Notes: a model not told the origin generated them from the sequence alone. Shown: positions 1,230-7,776, numbered from the stretch's first letter. The stretch: DNA of 7,776 nucleotides from a virus (IMGVR_UViG_2939152649_000004:1-7776), one strand, 5' to 3'. Program-made: numbers and translations.

Positions 1230-1814
1230 CTATTCGATAATGGGTCCTGTTGGCCATTCAATATCCGGTGCAGTTGATGTATCAACACGGTTCAGCAATA
1301 CCCGATACTTTTTCCATGCTTCCAGCAACGAGATTTCTTCCTCCGTTGCAATTTCCAGATCTGCAGCATCCTGAAGCGGCGCAATATGCTCACTGGCTAC
1401 CTGCATCAGGCTGTTTTTTGTTTCTTCCGCCTCCCGGATCCGGAACAGTTTTTCTGCTTCCGTATCCTTCACCCAGGCTGTGCCGTTCCACTTCTGATAT
1501 TCCCCTCCCGGCGATAACCAGGTAACATTTTCCGGTAACGGACCGAGTTCAGAAATAAATAACGCGTCGCCGGAAGCCACGTCATAAACCGTTTTACCCC
1601 GATGATTTTCAACGAGATGCCACGATGCCTCATCACTGTTGAAAACAGCCACGAAGCCTGCCGGAATATCTGGCGGTGCAATATCGATACTGTTTGCTGG
1701 CAGACCTGTATGAGGCGGAATATATGCGTCACCTTCACCAATAAATTCATTAGTTCCGGCCAGCAGATTATAAATTTTTATGGTCCGTGGTTGTTCACTC
1801 ATTCTGAATGCCAT
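1230..1814 (-). CDS. tfa: Tail fibre assembly protein Tfa (lambda-like)
   Basis: 194-aa [34 protein letters not shown]..., recognised as lambda Tfa with matching length. Its ATG overlaps the stf stop as TAATG, the arrangement expected for lambda stf-tfa. Confidence 0.93.
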
Positions 1815-3031
1815 TATGCAAGCCTCACAATATAGTTAAATGCGATGTTTTTGACGGTGTTTTCCGCGTTACCAGCAGCGTTAACGGTGATGGTGTGTCC
1901 ATGTGAGCCAATCGCAACCGAGTGCGTATGAGCACCAATACCCACAGTATGTGCGTGTGCACCTGCGCTTGCAGCAGTACCCGATACAGAGTGCGTATGA
2001 GCGCCTGCAGAAGAAGTGTTAACACTGTATTTAGAATAATCAGATGCTCCACTTCCCGGAGCACCACTGGAACCACCTGAAACAAATGTCATCGAATGGG
2101 TATGTGCACCGGCTGAAGCAGCCGTACCGCTAACACTATGGGTATGCGCACCAGTGTTATTCGTGGATTTAGTGCCGTAATCAAACGACGATGTGGTTTT
2201 CGTCCCCAAATCCGTACTGGATGCGCTGGCGCTGTGGGTGTGCGATTTAATGCCGTCCTGTTCCTGAGACAATACGGCCCGACCACTGGCGGGCTTGCCC
2301 TTAATCATCCAGCCACGCATATCAGGGATCACGCCTGACGGATAAGCCGCTGCAAGTTTCGGGTAAGCAGATTTGTCAAAAGTCTGCCCCTGCATCAGGG
2401 CATAACCAGACGGAACGGTATCCGATGGCCACGGGATTGGTGCGCCAGGCGGATAAAACTGCTCTGATGGCGTATAGAGTGAATAAACTGTACCGTCCGT
2501 TAACCCTTCCGGCTTATTAGCAGAATATGCTGGTGACGTATGAATCGTTACGCTGGCATTACTGGTATAATCCCATTGAATATTTACACCAGTCGCATAA
2601 TTTCCGATTGCAACGTAAATATCGTAAGTATCACCAGATGTATTGACCCAGGCAAAATTTGTAAACCCTGCCGATGTGCGCTGCCATAAAGCACCAGTAA
2701 TCCCCTTCGGATTACCATTACCTGCACGCAAAACAAGTTCAGATATACCTGCCTGTTGAGGTGAACCGACGTTATATCCAGCCCCACCAATCAACGTAAT
2801 TGAAACAACAGAACTCGCCTGCGGCATGGTTACCGTTGCTAATTTGAACCAACCAGCACCACCGCTGAATGACATAGTTGTTGAGTTAAGCGTACCAATA
2901 TCTTTCGGTGTCAGTGTTATATCCGCTGAAAGCGCCTTACCATTCACCTTACGGGCAGAAGGTACCCGAAATCCCCTGAAAGCACAGCGGCTGGCTGAGG
3001 AGATAAATAATAAACGGGGAGCTGTATGCAC
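1814..3031 (-). CDS. stf: Side tail fibre protein Stf, C-terminal portion; probably a 5'-truncated remnant
   Basis: C-terminus ...[31 protein letters not shown] is recognised as lambda-type Stf. It contains the tail-fibre motif [17 protein letters not shown] and repeated GAHTHS His motifs. The ORF opens with a GTG and a basic, non-fibre-like ~30-aa leader, the frame closes at 3050..3052, and no tail genes lie upstream. Confidence 0.8.
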
Positions 3032-3293: not shown

Positions 3294-3509
3294 ATGACAC
3301 ATCAGCAGGAAAACGCCCTTCGCAGTATTGCCCGTCAGGCTAATTCTGAAATCAAAAAAGCCAGACAGCAGTTTCCGGATAAAAACGTCGATGACATTTG
3401 CCGTAGCGTACTTAAGAAGCACCGCGAAACGGTAACGCTGATGGGATTCACACCGACTCATTTAAGCCTGGCGATCGGCATGTTAAACGGCGTCTTTAAG
3501 GAACGGTGA
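3294..3509 (+). CDS. Small exo-xis-region protein in the position of lambda orf61 (71 aa from ATG 3294)
   Basis: The ORF track gives 3228..3509, but the internal ATG at 3294 overlaps the stop of an upstream micro-ORF (ATGA-type coupling) and yields MTHQQENALRSIARQANSEIKKARQQFPDKNVDD... Same strand and operon as the orf63-like and TraR-like ORFs. Confidence 0.55.
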   Translation: MTHQQENALRSIARQANSEIKKARQQFPDKNVDDICRSVLKKHRETVTLMGFTPTHLSLAIGMLNGVFKER

Positions 3510-3607
3510 ACATGAAAAGCAAAATCATCAGGGAGCTACAGGTTCCTTTTTTATTGTTCGCATTCATCCTCAAGCGTATTAACCAACAATTCAGGGATTA
3601 ATGGAAG

Positions 3608-3829
3608 ATGGCAGACATCATTGATTCAGCATCAGAAATCGAAGAATTACAGCGCAACACAGCAATAAAAATGCGCCGCCTGAACCACCAGGCTATATCT
3701 GCCACTCATTGTTGTGAGTGTGGCGATCCGATAGATGAACGAAGACGCCTGGTCGTTCAGGGTTGTCGGACTTGTGCAAGTTGCCAGGAGGATCTGGAGC
3801 TTATCAGTAAACAGAGAGGTTCGAAGTGA
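3608..3829 (+). CDS. TraR/DksA-family C4 zinc-finger protein (lambda Orf73-like)
   Basis: 73-aa ORF with CCECG...(17 aa)...CRTCASC, i.e. a CxxC-N17-CxxC zinc ribbon at the C-terminus typical of TraR-like proteins. Length matches lambda orf73 and it sits upstream of xis/int on the same strand. Confidence 0.8.
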   Translation: MADIIDSASEIEELQRNTAIKMRRLNHQAISATHCCECGDPIDERRRLVVQGCRTCASCQEDLELISKQRGSK

Positions 3830-3980
3830 GCGAAATTAACTAGAAGCCAAAGATAAAATCATCGCTGAGCAGGAGAAAATCGCTAACGGAGAAAAGACAG
3901 TAAGTCAGTATATGAAAACCGCATGATATCATCAGATAAAAATCGGTCGTAAAGCGAAATATTAATACCAGAACAAACGA

Positions 3981-4006
3981 GTCGAGGTAAATTATATTAC
4001 CTCGAT
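3981..4006 (-). terminator. Hairpin between the convergent TraR-like gene and the membrane-protein gene; candidate terminator
   Basis: Perfect 8-bp stem cgaggtaa/ttacctcg (3983..3990 with 3997..4004) around loop attata, extendable by a t-a pair and a g.t wobble. The minus-strand side downstream is moderately U-rich. It lies about 35 nt past the stop of the 4040..4642 ORF. Confidence 0.35.
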
Positions 4007-4039
4007 AAATTAACTAAAACTTGCCCGCTATATACTATA

Positions 4040-4642
4040 TCATTCAGTATCATCACGCGCGGTCTGTGCATATGTCACTACCGCACCTAATATATTAATT
4101 TTCTTTTCAACATAGATAATATTATCGTACTCATAATTGCCATACGGATAGCAAATGCGAATATTCTCATGTAGATCGGGGTCATCCACCTCAGCTCCAG
4201 AACAACTTTTTGAACTACCGGAAGTATACCGATACGGTGCAACATAAGACGATGTCTCTCCAGGCAAAAAATAAGTTAGTGTCGTAAGGGGTATAATCAG
4301 AAAAAATCCTGCAAATATGCACATCCCTGCATAAACCTTAAGGTATGCTGACAGACTCTTCCAGCCTCTTTGTTTTACTATCCCCTTCTTAACCCAAAAC
4401 AGAGATAATAGAAAAGCTATTCCCATGCTAAACAGAATGTAATAGTGGGATATACTCTGATTAAGAAACGTGACCCTGTAGATATCTGCCCGCCACCAGA
4501 AGAAAAGGAAAATAAAGATCAGCCCTGAAACTGTCATGCAAATCAAATAAGGATACGAATCTTTTTTCATGTTTAGCGCCCATAAAATTTTTCCTGACCC
4601 GGACAAATTTACCATCCATTTTTTGCGCAGAAAATAGCTCAT
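4040..4642 (-). CDS. Hypothetical integral membrane protein (prophage cargo gene; about 3 TM helices plus a ~70-aa C-terminal domain); start uncertain
   Basis: 200-aa ORF with hydrophobic segments LICMTVSGLIFIFLFFWW, YYILFSMGIAFLLSLFWV and MCIFAGFFLIIPLTTLTYFL, then a hydrophilic Cys/Tyr-containing tail (...CSGAEVDDPDLHENIRICYPYGNYEYDNIIYVEKK...). AT-rich and opposite in orientation to the surrounding operon. Alternative starts at codon 10 or codon 25 (MKKDSYPYL, ATG at 4568..4570). Confidence 0.65.
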   Translation of the reverse strand: MSYFLRKKWMVNLSGSGKILWALNMKKDSYPYLICMTVSGLIFIFLFFWWRADIYRVTFLNQSISHYYILFSMGIAFLLSLFWVKKGIVKQRGWKSLSAYLKVYAGMCIFAGFFLIIPLTTLTYFLPGETSSYVAPYRYTSGSSKSCSGAEVDDPDLHENIRICYPYGNYEYDNIIYVEKKINILGAVVTYAQTARDDTE

Positions 4643-4884
4643 TACTTACTGCACAATAATACACAAAATTGCGTAAATTTTTTGCATGGATTTTAGCTCT
4701 TTCAGCCGACATTTAAGGGGTAAATAGCATTTCCTAAAAGCAACTGCACCAACCCAACAGAATGGGCTACCGCTTACGTTGAGAGCAAAAAAGTGTATAG
4801 CAGCAATGAACAGCATCCTCGCACTGACGAGGATTTCTTTTATCTGAACTCGCTACGGCGGGTTTTGTTTTATGGAGATGATAA

Positions 4885-5052
4885 ATGCACTTCCGAGTCA
4901 CAGGTGAATGGAATGGAGAACCATTCAACAGAGTTATCGAAGCCGAGAACATCAGCGACTGCTATGACCACTGGATGCTGTGGGCGCAGATAGCACATGC
5001 AGACGTAACCAATATTCGAATTGAAGAACTGAAAGAACACCAAGCCGCCTGA
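4885..5052 (+). CDS. Small protein upstream of xis (lambda orf55-like, 55 aa)
   Basis: ATG at 4885 preceded by GGAG at 4874..4877; translation MHFRVTGEWNGEPFNRVIEAENISDCYDHWMLWAQIAHADVTNIRIEELKEHQAA. Not in the ORF track because it is under 60 aa. Position and length match the 55-codon ORF next to xis in lambda. Confidence 0.6.
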   Translation: MHFRVTGEWNGEPFNRVIEAENISDCYDHWMLWAQIAHADVTNIRIEELKEHQAA

Positions 5053-5064
5053 TGGCGGTTTTTT
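5044..5064 (+). terminator. GC-rich hairpin plus T6 run overlapping the orf55 stop; intrinsic-terminator-like
   Basis: gccgcc (5044..5049), loop tgat, ggcggt (5054..5059) gives a 6-bp stem including one G.U pair, followed by tttttt. Function not established. Confidence 0.45.
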
Positions 5065-5065
5065 C

Positions 5066-5105
5066 TTGCGTGTAATTGCGGAGACTTTGCGATGTACTTG
5101 ACACT
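5066..5105 (+). promoter_or_regulatory. pI-type int promoter region with cII-binding box TTGC-N6-TTGC
   Basis: TTGC at 5066..5069 and 5076..5079 separated by 6 bp, immediately upstream of the xis ATG at 5092. In lambda the cII-activated pI promoter sits at the xis start with its transcript beginning inside xis. Confidence 0.55.
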
Positions 5106-5310
5106 TCAGGAGTGGAACGCACGCCAGCGACGCCCAAGAAGCCTTGAAACAGTTCGTCGATGGGTACGCGAGTGCAGGATATTCCCTCCTCCGGTAAAGG
5201 ATGGAAGAGAGTATCTGTTCCACGAATCAGCGGTAAAGGTTGACTTAAATCGACCAGTAACAGGTAGCCTTTTGAAGAGGATCAGAAATGGGAAGAAGGC
5301 GAAGTCATGA
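5092..5310 (+). CDS. xis: Excisionase Xis (lambda)
   Basis: 72-aa ORF MYLTLQEWNARQRRPRSLETVRRWVRECRIFPPPVKDGREYLFHESAVKVDLNRP..., recognised as near-identical to lambda Xis. It overlaps the int start as in lambda. Confidence 0.96.
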   Translation: MYLTLQEWNARQRRPRSLETVRRWVRECRIFPPPVKDGREYLFHESAVKVDLNRPVTGSLLKRIRNGKKAKS

Positions 5311-6358
5311 GCGCCGGGATTTACCCCCTAACCTTTATATAAGAAACAATGGATATTACTGCTACAGGGACCCAAGGACGGGTAAAGAGTTTGGATTAGG
5401 CAGAGACAGGCGAATCGCAATCACTGAAGCCATACAGGCCAACATTGAGTTATTTTCAGGACACAAACACAAGCCTCTGACAGCGAGAATCAACAGTGAT
5501 AATTCCGTTACGTTACATTCATGGCTTGATCGCTACGAAAAAATCCTGGCCAGCAGAGAAATCAAGCAGAAGACACTCATAAATTACATGAGCAAAATTA
5601 AAGCAATAAGGAGGGGTCTGCCTGATGCTCCACTTGAAGACATCACCACAAAAGAAATTGCGGCAATGCTCAATGGATACATAGACGAGGGCAAGGCGGC
5701 GTCAGCCAAGTTAATCAGATCAACACTGAGCGATGCATTCCGAGAGGCAATAGCTGAAGGCCATATAACAACAAACCCTGTCGCTGCCACTCGCGCAGCA
5801 AAATCAGAGGTAAGGAGATCAAGACTTACGGCTGACGAATACCTGAAAATTTATCAAGCAGCAGAATCATCACCATGTTGGCTCAGACTTGCAATGGAAC
5901 TGGCTGTTGTTACCGGGCAACGAGTTGGTGATTTATGCGAAATGAAGTGGTCTGATATCGTAGATGGATATCTTTATGTCGAGCAAAGCAAAACAGGCGT
6001 AAAAATTGCCATCCCAACAACATTGCATGTTGATGCTCTCGGGATATCAATGAAGGAAACACTTGATAAATGCAAAGAGATTCTTGGCGGAGAAACCATA
6101 ATTGCATCTACTCGTCGTGAACCGCTTTCATCCGGCACAGTATCAAGGTATTTTATGCGCGCACGAAAAGCATCAGGTCTTTCCTTCGAAGGGGATCCGC
6201 CTACCTTTCACGAGTTGCGCAGTTTGTCTGCAAGACTCTATGAGAAGCAGATAAGCGATAAGTTTGCTCAACATCTTCTCGGGCATAAGTCGGACACCAT
6301 GGCATCACAGTATCGTGATGACAGAGGCAGGGAGTGGGACAAAATTGAAATCAAATAA
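5288..6358 (+). CDS. int: Tyrosine integrase Int (lambda)
   Basis: 356-aa ORF MGRRRSHERRDLPPNLYIRNNGYYCYRDPRTGKEFGLGRDRR...DKIEIK, recognised as near-identical to lambda Int. The catalytic region includes HELRSLSARLY and the tyrosine in ...MASQYRDDRG. Confidence 0.97.
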   Translation: MGRRRSHERRDLPPNLYIRNNGYYCYRDPRTGKEFGLGRDRRIAITEAIQANIELFSGHKHKPLTARINSDNSVTLHSWLDRYEKILASREIKQKTLINYMSKIKAIRRGLPDAPLEDITTKEIAAMLNGYIDEGKAASAKLIRSTLSDAFREAIAEGHITTNPVAATRAAKSEVRRSRLTADEYLKIYQAAESSPCWLRLAMELAVVTGQRVGDLCEMKWSDIVDGYLYVEQSKTGVKIAIPTTLHVDALGISMKETLDKCKEILGGETIIASTRREPLSSGTVSRYFMRARKASGLSFEGDPPTFHELRSLSARLYEKQISDKFAQHLLGHKSDTMASQYRDDRGREWDKIEIK

Positions 6359-6448
6359 TGATTTTATTTTGACTGATAGTGACCTGTTCGTTGCAACAAA
6401 TTGATAAGCAATGCTTTTTTATAATGCCAACTTAGTATAAAAAAGCAG
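6355..6448 (-). other. attL prophage-host junction: lambda P' arm (Int arm-type sites P'1-P'3, IHF H' site) plus the 15-bp att core
   Basis: Reverse complement reads GCCTGCTTTTTTATACTAAGTTGGCATTATAAAAAAGCATTGCTTATCAATTTGTTGCAACGAACAGGTCACTATCAGTCAAAATAAAATCATTA. Core GCTTTTTTATACTAA is at 6432..6446; arm-type sites are at 6355..6385; IHF-like TATCAATTTGTTG is near 6393..6407. Bacterial B-arm sequence follows the core. Confidence 0.88.
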
Positions 6449-6492
6449 GCTTCAACGGATTCATTTTTCTATTTCATAGCCCGGAGCAACCT

Positions 6493-7776
6493 GTGAACAC
6501 ATTTTCAGTTTCCCGTCTGGCGCTGGCATTGGCTTTTGGCGTGACGCTGACCGCCTGTAGCTCAACCCCGCCCGATCAACGTCCTTCTGATCAAACCGCG
6601 CCTGGTACCTCTTCTCGCCCGATTCTGTCGGCAAAAGAAGCGCAGAATTTCGATGCTCAACACTATTTTGCATCCCTGACACCAGGTGCTGCAGCGTGGA
6701 ATCCTTCCCCGATTACCCTGCCTGCGCAACCTGACTTTGTTGTCGGCCCGGCGGGCACTCAAGGTGTAACGCATACCACGATTCAGGCGGCGGTAGATGC
6801 GGCAATTATCAAGCGTACCAACAAGCGCCAGTATATTGCCGTGATGCCTGGTGAGTATCAGGGAACGGTATATGTCCCTGCCGCTCCGGGTGGAATTACT
6901 CTGTACGGTACAGGTGAAAAACCGATTGATGTGAAGATTGGGCTTTCCCTTGATGGTGGCATGAGCCCTGCCGACTGGCGTCACGACGTCAACCCGCGCG
7001 GCAAATATATGCCAGGTAAACCAGCGTGGTATATGTACGATAGCTGCCAGAGCAAACGCAGCGACAGTATCGGTGTTCTCTGCTCTGCGGTCTTCTGGTC
7101 ACAAAACAATGGCCTGCAACTGCAAAATCTGACCATCGAAAACACGCTGGGCGATAGCGTAGATGCAGGTAACCATCCGGCGGTGGCACTGCGTACTGAT
7201 GGTGACCAGGTACAGATTAACAACGTTAACATTCTCGGTCGTCAGAACACCTTCTTTGTCACCAACAGCGGTGTGCAGAACCGTCTGGAAACGAATCGTC
7301 AGCCGCGTACGCTGGTGACCAACAGCTACATTGAAGGGGATGTGGATATCGTTTCTGGTCGCGGCGCAGTGGTGTTCGATAACACCGAATTCCGCGTGGT
7401 GAACTCACGTACTCAGCAAGAAGCGTATGTGTTTGCACCGGCTACGCTGTCCAACATTTACTACGGTTTCCTCGCCGTAAACAGCCGTTTCAATGCTTTC
7501 GGTGATGGTGTGGCGCAACTGGGCCGCTCGCTGGATGTTGATGCCAATACCAACGGTCAGGTGGTGATCCGTGATAGCGCCATCAACGAAGGTTTTAACA
7601 CGGCTAAACCGTGGGCCGATGCGGTGATCTCTAATCGTCCGTTTGCGGGTAATACCGGCAGCGTAGATGATAACGACGAAATACAGCGCAATCTGAATGA
7701 CACTAACTACAACCGCATGTGGGAATACAATAACCGCGGCGTGGGTAGTAAAGTGGTTGCAGAGGCGAAGAAGTAA
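6493..7776 (+). CDS. ybhC: Host outer-membrane lipoprotein YbhC (pectinesterase-like family, putative acyl-CoA thioesterase)
   Basis: 427-aa ORF from a GTG start with GGAG 6 nt upstream. N-terminus MNTFSVSRLALALAFGVTLTAC carries a lipobox (LTAC). ybhC is the gene flanking att-lambda in E. coli; the complete ORF ends with TAA at 7774..7776. Confidence 0.9.
   Translation: MNTFSVSRLALALAFGVTLTACSSTPPDQRPSDQTAPGTSSRPILSAKEAQNFDAQHYFASLTPGAAAWNPSPITLPAQPDFVVGPAGTQGVTHTTIQAAVDAAIIKRTNKRQYIAVMPGEYQGTVYVPAAPGGITLYGTGEKPIDVKIGLSLDGGMSPADWRHDVNPRGKYMPGKPAWYMYDSCQSKRSDSIGVLCSAVFWSQNNGLQLQNLTIENTLGDSVDAGNHPAVALRTDGDQVQINNVNILGRQNTFFVTNSGVQNRLETNRQPRTLVTNSYIEGDVDIVSGRGAVVFDNTEFRVVNSRTQQEAYVFAPATLSNIYYGFLAVNSRFNAFGDGVAQLGRSLDVDANTNGQVVIRDSAINEGFNTAKPWADAVISNRPFAGNTGSVDDNDEIQRNLNDTNYNRMWEYNNRGVGSKVVAEAKK

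Follow-up and report, generated by a model that had tools for sequence, protein, structure and literature searches.

An imported membrane-protein gene in place of ea22 and ea8.5 in a lambdoid prophage of Escherichia coli and its relatives in P2-like prophages

We analysed a stretch of viral DNA of 7,776 nucleotides (IMGVR_UViG_2939152649_000004:1-7776, in the following called the window), which represents the left end of a lambdoid prophage at attB-lambda of Escherichia coli, and concentrated on a minus-strand gene that lies between orf73 and orf55. In the sense of Juhala and Hendrix, a moron is an autonomous cargo unit in a temperate phage. The module at 3842-4814 was found to be such an imported cargo unit in the exo-xis region, containing one autonomous gene opposite to the pL operon. 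Moreover, the module transfers among cargo slots of unrelated temperate phages, namely the ea22/ea8.5 position of lambda, the region between gpA and the portal gene of P2, and an integrase-proximal slot. The gene is real and under purifying selection, and it has already been deposited many times as 'hypothetical'. The kind of element, a moron encoding a small membrane protein, is familiar; the family is uncharacterised. From location and architecture only, we tentatively propose that the protein could be a phage-exclusion factor that is expressed in the lysogen and acts at the inner membrane and in the periplasm, a reading that we regard as quite possible.

Results

The module replaces ea22 and ea8.5 of lambda

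Comparison with lambda delimited the module on both sides. Positions 3500-3841 of the window matched lambda 30721-30380 with 97.7%, and positions 4815-5100 matched lambda 29355-29070 with 96%. The original prediction, which had been made from the sequence alone, stated that a single gene on the opposite strand replaces ea22 and ea8.5, and the alignments indeed revealed an exact swap between conserved flanks that are 96-98% identical. As to the presence or absence by which a moron is recognised, lambda has ea22 and ea8.5 where the window as well as the phages 434 and mEp332 carry the module. Composition and an own terminator, two further hallmarks, were also found, in the form of a deviating GC content and a predicted hairpin. 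The GC content was 0.348 for 3830-4039, 0.388 for the open reading frame (ORF), and 0.401 for 4643-4884, versus 0.461 in the flanking phage genes. For the whole module it was 0.38 compared with 0.46 in the flanks, in agreement with the AT-rich, atypical composition that had been noted before.

A hairpin just past the stop codon had likewise been proposed, and it was localised to 4005-3982 (Table 1). The 3' region folded at -20.1 kcal/mol (z = -2.9), and none of 200 shuffled sequences was as stable. The hairpin is common to the window and the E. coli P2-type copy. Its status as a terminator is a sequence prediction, and the T-tract is imperfect.

The regions on both sides of the gene had been described as AT-rich and non-coding. 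They are AT-rich, but they contain a remnant of an Ea22-like gene, a fragment resembling the P2 backbone, and the terminator tL4. Over 44 nt, the remnant was 77% identical to the Ea22-like gene in the P2-like prophage loci L015, L022 and L023, and a tblastn match of 73% over 15 amino acids was obtained. Just upstream of the remnant, positions 3826-3843 read VSEIN followed by a stop codon, which corresponds to the first five codons of lambda ea22. On the other side of the gene, the segment 4650-4765 gave two colinear weak matches (about 73% identity, E values of 0.001-0.005) to the P2 loci L023 and L110, in which the cargo is unrelated to the gene under study. More than 1,000 genomes contain the P2 cos-proximal backbone DNA. 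A comparison of 3800-5100 with Rfam yielded no match, and therefore no known RNA element is present in the conserved leader.

Two further features of the right-hand part of the module were inspected. Three direct repeats of TTGTGCA with a spacing of 10-11 nt are present on the minus strand of the window at 4650-4700 and in L015 at 4880-4925. They are conserved in loci of both the lambda type and the P2 type; a Salmonella locus has lost one of them. They might serve as an operator, as a site related to terminase or cos, or as a promoter of the hotspot. The same region contains an ORF of 56 amino acids, and a two-gene cassette including this ORF was considered and rejected. The ORF starts inside the tL4 hairpin and is unconserved outside the lambda-type copies, and among 39 haplotypes 0 synonymous and 4 non-synonymous polymorphisms, together with two gapped sites, were counted. 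It is probably not a gene.

The gene is conserved and starts at M25

The minus strand of the module contains the predicted ORF of 603 nt, encoding 200 amino acids, at 4040-4642. PGAP annotates the identical ORF, as WP_001348592.1, in an E. coli chromosome that is 100% identical over 3830-4884. When the segment 3830-4884 was shuffled 5,000 times, the longest ORF had a mean length of 67 and a maximal length of 159 amino acids, and therefore chance does not explain an ORF of 200 amino acids. Among the lambda-type, the E. coli P2-type and the Salmonella P2-type alleles, the ratio of non-synonymous to synonymous substitution rates (dN/dS) was 0.09-0.15 at a synonymous divergence (dS) of 1-2. The ORF was intact in at least 75 of 80 IMG/VR loci.

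The conserved protein is shorter than the annotated one. The alignment of 24 homologues begins at the invariant M25 (ATG at 4570, MKKDSYPYL), and the preceding 24 residues are unconserved. All homologues outside the near-identical lambda-type copies start at M25. In P2-type copies, an in-frame stop codon is located within the region of the 'extension', and in the chromosomal orthologues a Shine-Dalgarno motif (AAGGAGG or AAGGA) precedes the ATG that is equivalent to M25. MKKDSYPYL had been mentioned as an alternative start and proved to be the correct one. The protein comprises 176 rather than 200 amino acids. The region 4571-4642 would most likely represent the promoter and the 5' untranslated region instead of coding sequence.

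Within this region, and downstream of the annotated ATG at 4642, a candidate extended -10 element was detected. The motif TGnTAAATT was found in the identical position in four of four prophage cassettes compared, and TGGTAATTT is present at -48 in Citrobacter. Of the own promoter and terminator that had been postulated for the gene, the terminator is thus represented by the predicted hairpin, whereas the promoter is represented by this conserved motif, with a blank sigma-70 scan (see Discussion).

The over-long reference has consequences for the annotation of related copies. RefSeq flags several P2-type copies as 'frameshifted' (for example L024, L026, L028 and L029). All six P2-type copies that were examined, four of which carry the flag, contained an intact ORF of 176 amino acids. 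The flags arise because the PGAP reference protein is the over-long form of 200 amino acids. A frameshifted ORF in otherwise identical prophages had been named in advance as an observation that would speak against the original prediction. Such ORFs are apparent in RefSeq, but they turned out to be an annotation artefact.

Shortened database entries of 112 and 90 amino acids start at internal GTG or ATG codons and look like choices of gene callers. The commonest database form of the P2-type gene has 112 amino acids (P0131/P0133, at least 1,000 contigs) and begins with a GTG start codon after a G6 run. This run is Shine-Dalgarno-like (GAGGGGGG, at about 5180-5195 of L015). The form of 112 amino acids is either a gene-caller artefact, or it results from a real internal start, which would give a one-helix isoform, or it marks a poly-G slippage site.

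Three transmembrane helices precede a predicted beta-barrel

Hydropathy analysis revealed three transmembrane segments at residues ~7-27, 40-60 and 78-101. The loop between helices 2 and 3 (KKGIVKQRGWKSLSAYLK) contains 6 positive and 0 negative charges. From this charged loop and the positive-inside rule it follows that the topology would be N-in/C-out, with a periplasmic C-terminal domain. AlphaFold2 predicted three helices followed by a five-stranded beta-barrel, with predicted local distance difference test (pLDDT) values of 85 for the whole protein and 87 for the C-terminal domain alone. Both methods agree with the roughly three N-terminal helices and the C-terminal domain of about 70 amino acids with Cys and Tyr residues that had been proposed originally. 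The barrel (residues 105-171, in a domain of about 75 amino acids) contains the invariant residues C123 and C140 and the motif CSGAxV[DE][DE]P..I[RK]ICYPxG.

The 24 homologues, with identities down to 42%, share 29 invariant columns. Conservation peaks in the parts that are predicted to be periplasmic, i.e. loop 1 (IYRxTFL) and the barrel. The predicted cytoplasmic parts sum up to about 25 residues, comprising about 5 N-terminal residues and the 17-residue loop. The barrel is predicted to face the periplasm, packed against loop 1, and is probably disulfide-bonded.

The family is small and lacks annotated relatives

When 1.84 billion cluster representatives were searched exhaustively with a profile, 61 proteins were retrieved, nearly all of which have about 170 amino acids and the same architecture. 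The source-named homologues and the retrieved genome loci all belonged to Enterobacteriaceae, with the exception of one metagenome bin of 3.6 kb that is labelled Nanosynbacter and contains the identical lambda-type cassette. Searches with the protein against Pfam-A, NCBIfam and PDB sequence profiles and fold searches against PDB and BFVD gave no match. Together with negative results for PADLOC and for a PHROGs function, this is in accordance with the earlier statement that no family was recognisable. In contrast, the designation 'orphan' had to be abandoned, because the gene belongs to a conserved family with syntenic chromosomal orthologues in the Enterobacter cloacae complex.

In PHROGs the cargo family corresponds to phrog_1416, which matches residues 113-200 of the 200-residue ORF (E = 7e-51). 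This profile has only 90 positions, since it was built from N-terminally shortened gene calls, and comprises the last helix and the barrel. A match to P0122, a repeat protein of 3,074 amino acids, was a short resemblance of a Cys motif and was discarded as uninformative.

The gene occupies different slots in lambdoid phages, P2-like prophages and chromosomes

The phages 434, mEp332 and 2B8 carry the lambda-type module. Among 5,426 complete E. coli genomes it was found in 906 (17%), O157:H7 and O55:H7 strains included. At least 80% of the segment 3830-4884 was found in 904 of 2,216 genomes with a match to any part of it; these 904 are the module carriers, and the 2,216 genomes matched mostly through the short lambdoid flanks of the segment. 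Homologues in E. coli with 78% identity and in Salmonella with 71% identity reside in P2-like prophages, between the portal gene gpQ and the replication gene gpA, and homologues with 51% identity were also found in this slot. The gpA-gpQ slot is occupied by homologues, not by the copy of the window, in L015-L020, L022 and L024 as well as in 14 IMG/VR loci. Two additional homologues adjoin the integrase gene at a prophage end, beside an HNH or an HTH-HipA gene.

Citrobacter, Klebsiella and Pseudescherichia carry more diverged homologues (36-55% identity) as chromosomal genes whose neighbours vary. Five species of the Enterobacter cloacae complex also have such orthologues, and there the location is syntenic, the GC content is near-genomic (0.50-0.535), and dN/dS is 0.22-0.40. 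These Enterobacter orthologues (L007-L010 and L014, match 6001-6500) are convergent with a gene for a HAMP-GAF-GGDEF diguanylate cyclase. The DNA directly upstream of them varies, with a LysR gene, an AT-rich stretch or something else in this place, which gives the impression that the gene sits at the edge of a variable island.

Several additional observations were made at these loci. In many P2 hotspots, a partition-like gene pair, ParM/StbA and StbB, lies beside gpA (L023 and L110 were examined). The cargo past the ParM/StbB pair varies and can be an Ea22-like gene, a ClpX zinc-finger gene with a Fic gene, a gene of the XF1762 family, or the gene studied here. Intact Ead/Ea22-like genes are themselves frequent cargo of P2 hotspots. 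The record of phage 434B (OL657227, L002) contains at 1-1600, beyond int, fragments annotated as NleC-like and NleH-like type III secretion system effectors and a fragment of an IS1414 transposase gene. This is an unexpected cargo for a laboratory phage.

The module seems to have moved as a block

The positions 3950-4707 of the window, about 760 bp, are 76% identical at the nucleotide level to the E. coli P2-type locus. This shared unit is composed of 137 nt of upstream DNA, the ORF, and the hairpin. Its recurrence in P2-like prophages substantiates the earlier idea of a self-contained cargo unit. The lambda-type module keeps P2 backbone DNA and the Ea22-like remnant, and therefore a block move between phage families is indicated. 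The simplest reading would be that the lambdoid exo-xis region received the block from a P2-like hotspot.

Ea22 homology may have helped this transfer. The left joint is located within ea22, five codons from its start. Lambda Ea22 and the P2-type Ea22-like protein share the N-terminus SEIN.QALRE. In P2-type loci, the gene studied here displaces or truncates part of the Ea22-like gene.

The prophage is a deletion stump

The genes int (5288-6358) and xis (5092-5310) are encoded on the plus strand and point to the host gene ybhC, which lies from 6493 onward. Upstream of xis, the gene order is orf55, the minus-strand gene, orf73, an orf61-like gene, and orf63. The protein encoded by orf73 is 100% identical to that of a lambda ORF (NC_001416 30395-30613) which was left unannotated in NC_001416. 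The prophage is a deletion stump whose homology to lambda and 434 starts within orf60a, at 2963. At the junction (about 2962/2963, within 1814-3031), orf60a DNA is joined to the middle of a minus-strand tail-fibre gene, and the deletion takes out everything from exo to the tail genes. The junction was absent from all 5,426 complete E. coli genomes, and therefore the stump is strain-specific or recent.

Beyond the junction, a gene for tail-fibre assembly is followed by an AT-rich GGDEF gene that IS1 has cut, and then by the IS1 element. The GGDEF gene (ORF 389-1156) encodes a MASE4-GGDEF 'sensor diguanylate cyclase', and its 5' end was cut by IS1 (insA at 1-276). In other E. coli strains the gene is intact, and matches to it begin at about position 332 of the window. 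The gene fits the description of DgcX, a diguanylate cyclase that is encoded beside prophage remnants at attB-lambda in O104:H4, enteroaggregative and enterotoxigenic strains (PMC4287979). Since the Enterobacter orthologues adjoin a diguanylate cyclase gene and the window contains one too, a functional link between the cargo gene and the GGDEF gene was considered. It was rejected, as the similarity is that of generic GGDEF proteins (28-33% identity). The two genes are close to one another in the window because of the strain-specific deletion.

Table 1. Positions of the features described for the module and its surroundings, counted from the first nucleotide of the window
Feature	Position	Strand	Remark
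Imported module of 973 bp in place of lambda ea22 and ea8.5	3842-4814		Lambda homology ends at 3841 and restarts at 4815
True coding sequence, 176 amino acids plus stop codon (4040-4042)	4040-4570	-	Alignment starts at M25 of the 200-residue ORF
24-codon 'N-terminal extension' of the 200-residue ORF	4571-4642	-	Most likely promoter and 5' untranslated region, non-coding
Candidate extended -10 element TGGTAAATT	4606-4614	-	44 nt upstream of the M25 ATG; prediction only
Terminator-like hairpin, 9-bp stem, 6-nt loop	3982-4005	-	35 nt past the stop codon
Remnant of an Ead/Ea22-like gene, coiled-coil segment LEAKDKIIAEQEKIA	3840-3883	+	Convergent with the gene under study, as in P2-type loci
P2-like cos-proximal backbone fragment (there downstream of the portal gene)	4650-4765	-	Contains TTGTGCA direct repeats
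ORF of 56 amino acids, hypothetical or membrane protein in the annotation of 434 and mEp332	4646-4816	-	Probably not a gene
tL4 hairpin, terminator of the pL operon, followed by a T-run	4815-4834	+	Lambda-homologous DNA; maps to tL4 of GenBank M60848
orf73, left conserved flank, TraR/DksA zinc-finger protein	3608-3829	+	Pfam PF01258
orf55, right conserved flank, followed by xis and int	4885-5052	+	phrog_676; 96% identical to lambda lambdap35

Discussion

HK97 gp15, T4 Imm and P22 SieA are inner-membrane superinfection-exclusion proteins. The gene described here resembles such exclusion morons in that it encodes a small inner-membrane protein, forms an autonomous AT-rich unit with an own terminator and, in our case, a candidate own promoter, and sits between conserved phage genes. 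For proteins of exclusion morons, synthesis in the lysogen and an action at the envelope are to be expected. In contrast to the similar organisation, there is no sequence similarity to an exclusion family of PHROGs, and the combination of three helices and a periplasmic beta-barrel is without a counterpart in PDB or BFVD. The DUF1093/YxeA-type and OB-like small beta-barrels (PDB 3npp and 2k5q; cold-shock domains) can be named among the closest known systems. If the protein does exclude phages, the gene would be expressed from the repressed prophage, and the periplasmic domain would interfere with an envelope step in the infection by other phages. The step most likely blocked would be genome delivery across the periplasm and the inner membrane, and the outcome would be superinfection exclusion rather than cell suicide. 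We favour exclusion because the gene forms a unit of its own that runs antisense to the early operon, and because the family occupies three prophage cargo slots, one of which is a validated defence hotspot. An action at DNA entry is preferred over abortive infection because the conserved surface is mostly periplasmic and the cytoplasmic mass is almost nil. Somewhat more doubtful is the complete model, in which the protein would represent a new single-component, periplasm-facing exclusion family, with a three-helix anchor, a disulfide-locked barrel that blocks the entry of competing genomes, and a promoter-gene-terminator block that shuttles between the defence hotspots of P2-like and lambdoid phages.

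The occurrence of homologues in the P2 gpA-portal hotspot is the strongest support for the possible function in superinfection exclusion or abortive infection that had been suggested originally. This locus is an experimentally established anti-phage hotspot and holds old and tin (PMC9122126). At the equivalent hotspot of P4 satellites, which are parasites of the helper phage P2, six of eight randomly chosen cargoes of unknown function protected against phages (PMC13586616). Homologues with 51-78% identity share the gpA-gpQ locus with the old and tin cargo in E. coli and Salmonella. However, their sequences are unrelated to Old (ATPase-TOPRIM) or Tin, and their neighbours are the ParM/StbB partition genes and an Ea22-like remnant instead of known defence genes.

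Several results weigh against a role in exclusion. In Table S5A of Rousset 2022, WP_000711113, the P2-type protein, appears among the hotspot genes as 'hypothetical', and this gene was outside the systems tested in that study (PMC9122126). The immediate neighbours in the P2 hotspots include no recognised defence genes, and a comparison of the hotspot neighbours with PADLOC was negative except for a weak match of PDC-M03A to a HipA-like gene. For the protein itself, PADLOC-DB v2 (including the PD-T4, PD-lambda and PDC candidates) yielded 0 families at E <= 0.1. At the same threshold no exclusion family was found in PHROGs, and only phrog_1416, with an unassigned function, was matched. WP_001348592 and WP_000711113 were absent from the tables of Vassallo 2022 and DefensePredictor, some of which are possibly incomplete. 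Literature searches by accession, phage name and exo-xis region retrieved no study and no phenotype, expression or interaction data. A standard sigma-70 scan for -35/-10 elements did not find a promoter upstream of the gene, so that the promoter is a motif match only. Lastly, the pattern of chromosomal orthologues fits a cellular envelope function equally well.

Such a function is the content of the most serious alternative, a lysogenic-conversion or host-envelope factor that is unrelated to phage defence and was captured by prophages from the enterobacterial chromosome. Such a factor could, for instance, confer immunity to a periplasm-acting bacteriocin or to a toxin of a type VI secretion system or of contact-dependent inhibition, or it could modulate an inner-membrane sensor or transporter. 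The five Enterobacter species with syntenic orthologues of near-genomic GC content under purifying selection argue for it, as do the homologues of Citrobacter, Klebsiella and Pseudescherichia, which lie between ordinary metabolic and regulatory genes. The genes next to it in Enterobacter and Citrobacter encode membrane-bound signalling proteins, one with HAMP, GAF and GGDEF domains and the other a HAMP histidine kinase, and no similarity to the defence families of PADLOC was found. On the other hand, the E. coli and Salmonella copies are found in the three prophage cargo slots, including the validated defence hotspot, the chromosomal neighbourhoods vary by genus such that no conserved functional partner is visible, and chromosomal residence is compatible with a defence role. 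We consider an envelope factor somewhat less likely than exclusion. An abortive-infection effector, a three-helix protein that would be triggered by infection, permeabilise or depolarise the inner membrane, and kill the cell before the phage matures, appears clearly less probable than that. Transmembrane proteins in defence hotspots are commonly read as suicide effectors (PMC9122126), and a single autonomous unit in a hotspot would be in line with this view. However, the protein is devoid of a cytoplasmic domain able to sense infection, and its strongest conservation is in the periplasmic barrel. In addition, no conserved partner gene exists, as the upstream ORFs differ between loci or are absent, and the gene is carried intact in 17% of the complete E. 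coli genomes.

A role in the life cycle of the carrier phage seems more improbable still. The protein could then take over the function of the pro-lysogenic Ea22 or regulate lysis or injection from the membrane. Like ea22 and ea8.5, the gene occupies the slot between orf73 and orf55, where the first five codons of ea22 are kept, and the genes of the exo-xis region influence the lysis-lysogeny decision (PMC7093339). The P2-type copy also displaces part of an Ea22-like gene. However, ea22 and ea8.5 are part of the early transcript of pL and encode cytoplasmic proteins, whereas the gene described here is on the opposite strand, antisense to the pL operon and with its own terminator, and thus outside the early transcript. 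Its membrane-bound product is not similar to Ea22 or Ea8.5, and the gene exists in P2-like phages and as a phage-independent chromosomal gene as well. The 'frameshifted' flags in RefSeq and the many entries shortened to 112 or 90 amino acids could suggest that the ORF is non-functional, i.e. a chance ORF or a decaying pseudogene in AT-rich filler. This explanation is effectively refuted by conservation: none of the 5,000 shuffles reached even 176 amino acids, the dN/dS values are low, 29 columns are invariant, the fold is predicted with confidence, and the flagged copies all hold the intact ORF of 176 amino acids.

Irrespective of the function, the results show that a cargo block has passed between the cos-proximal hotspot of P2 and the exo-xis region of lambda and has kept parts of the donor backbone. 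They also uncover a systematic annotation error, in which a reference protein that is 24 residues too long leads to intact P2-type copies being called frameshifted pseudogenes. The family is uncharacterised and remained undetected by PADLOC and in the tables of Vassallo and DefensePredictor, yet it is common in E. coli and present in the classical phage 434. If the protein does exclude phages, it would represent a new envelope-level defence family that current predictors have missed. It would also bear on the host range in phage therapy, as the gene resides in the textbook phage 434, in about one sixth of the E. coli genomes, and in prophages of O157:H7.

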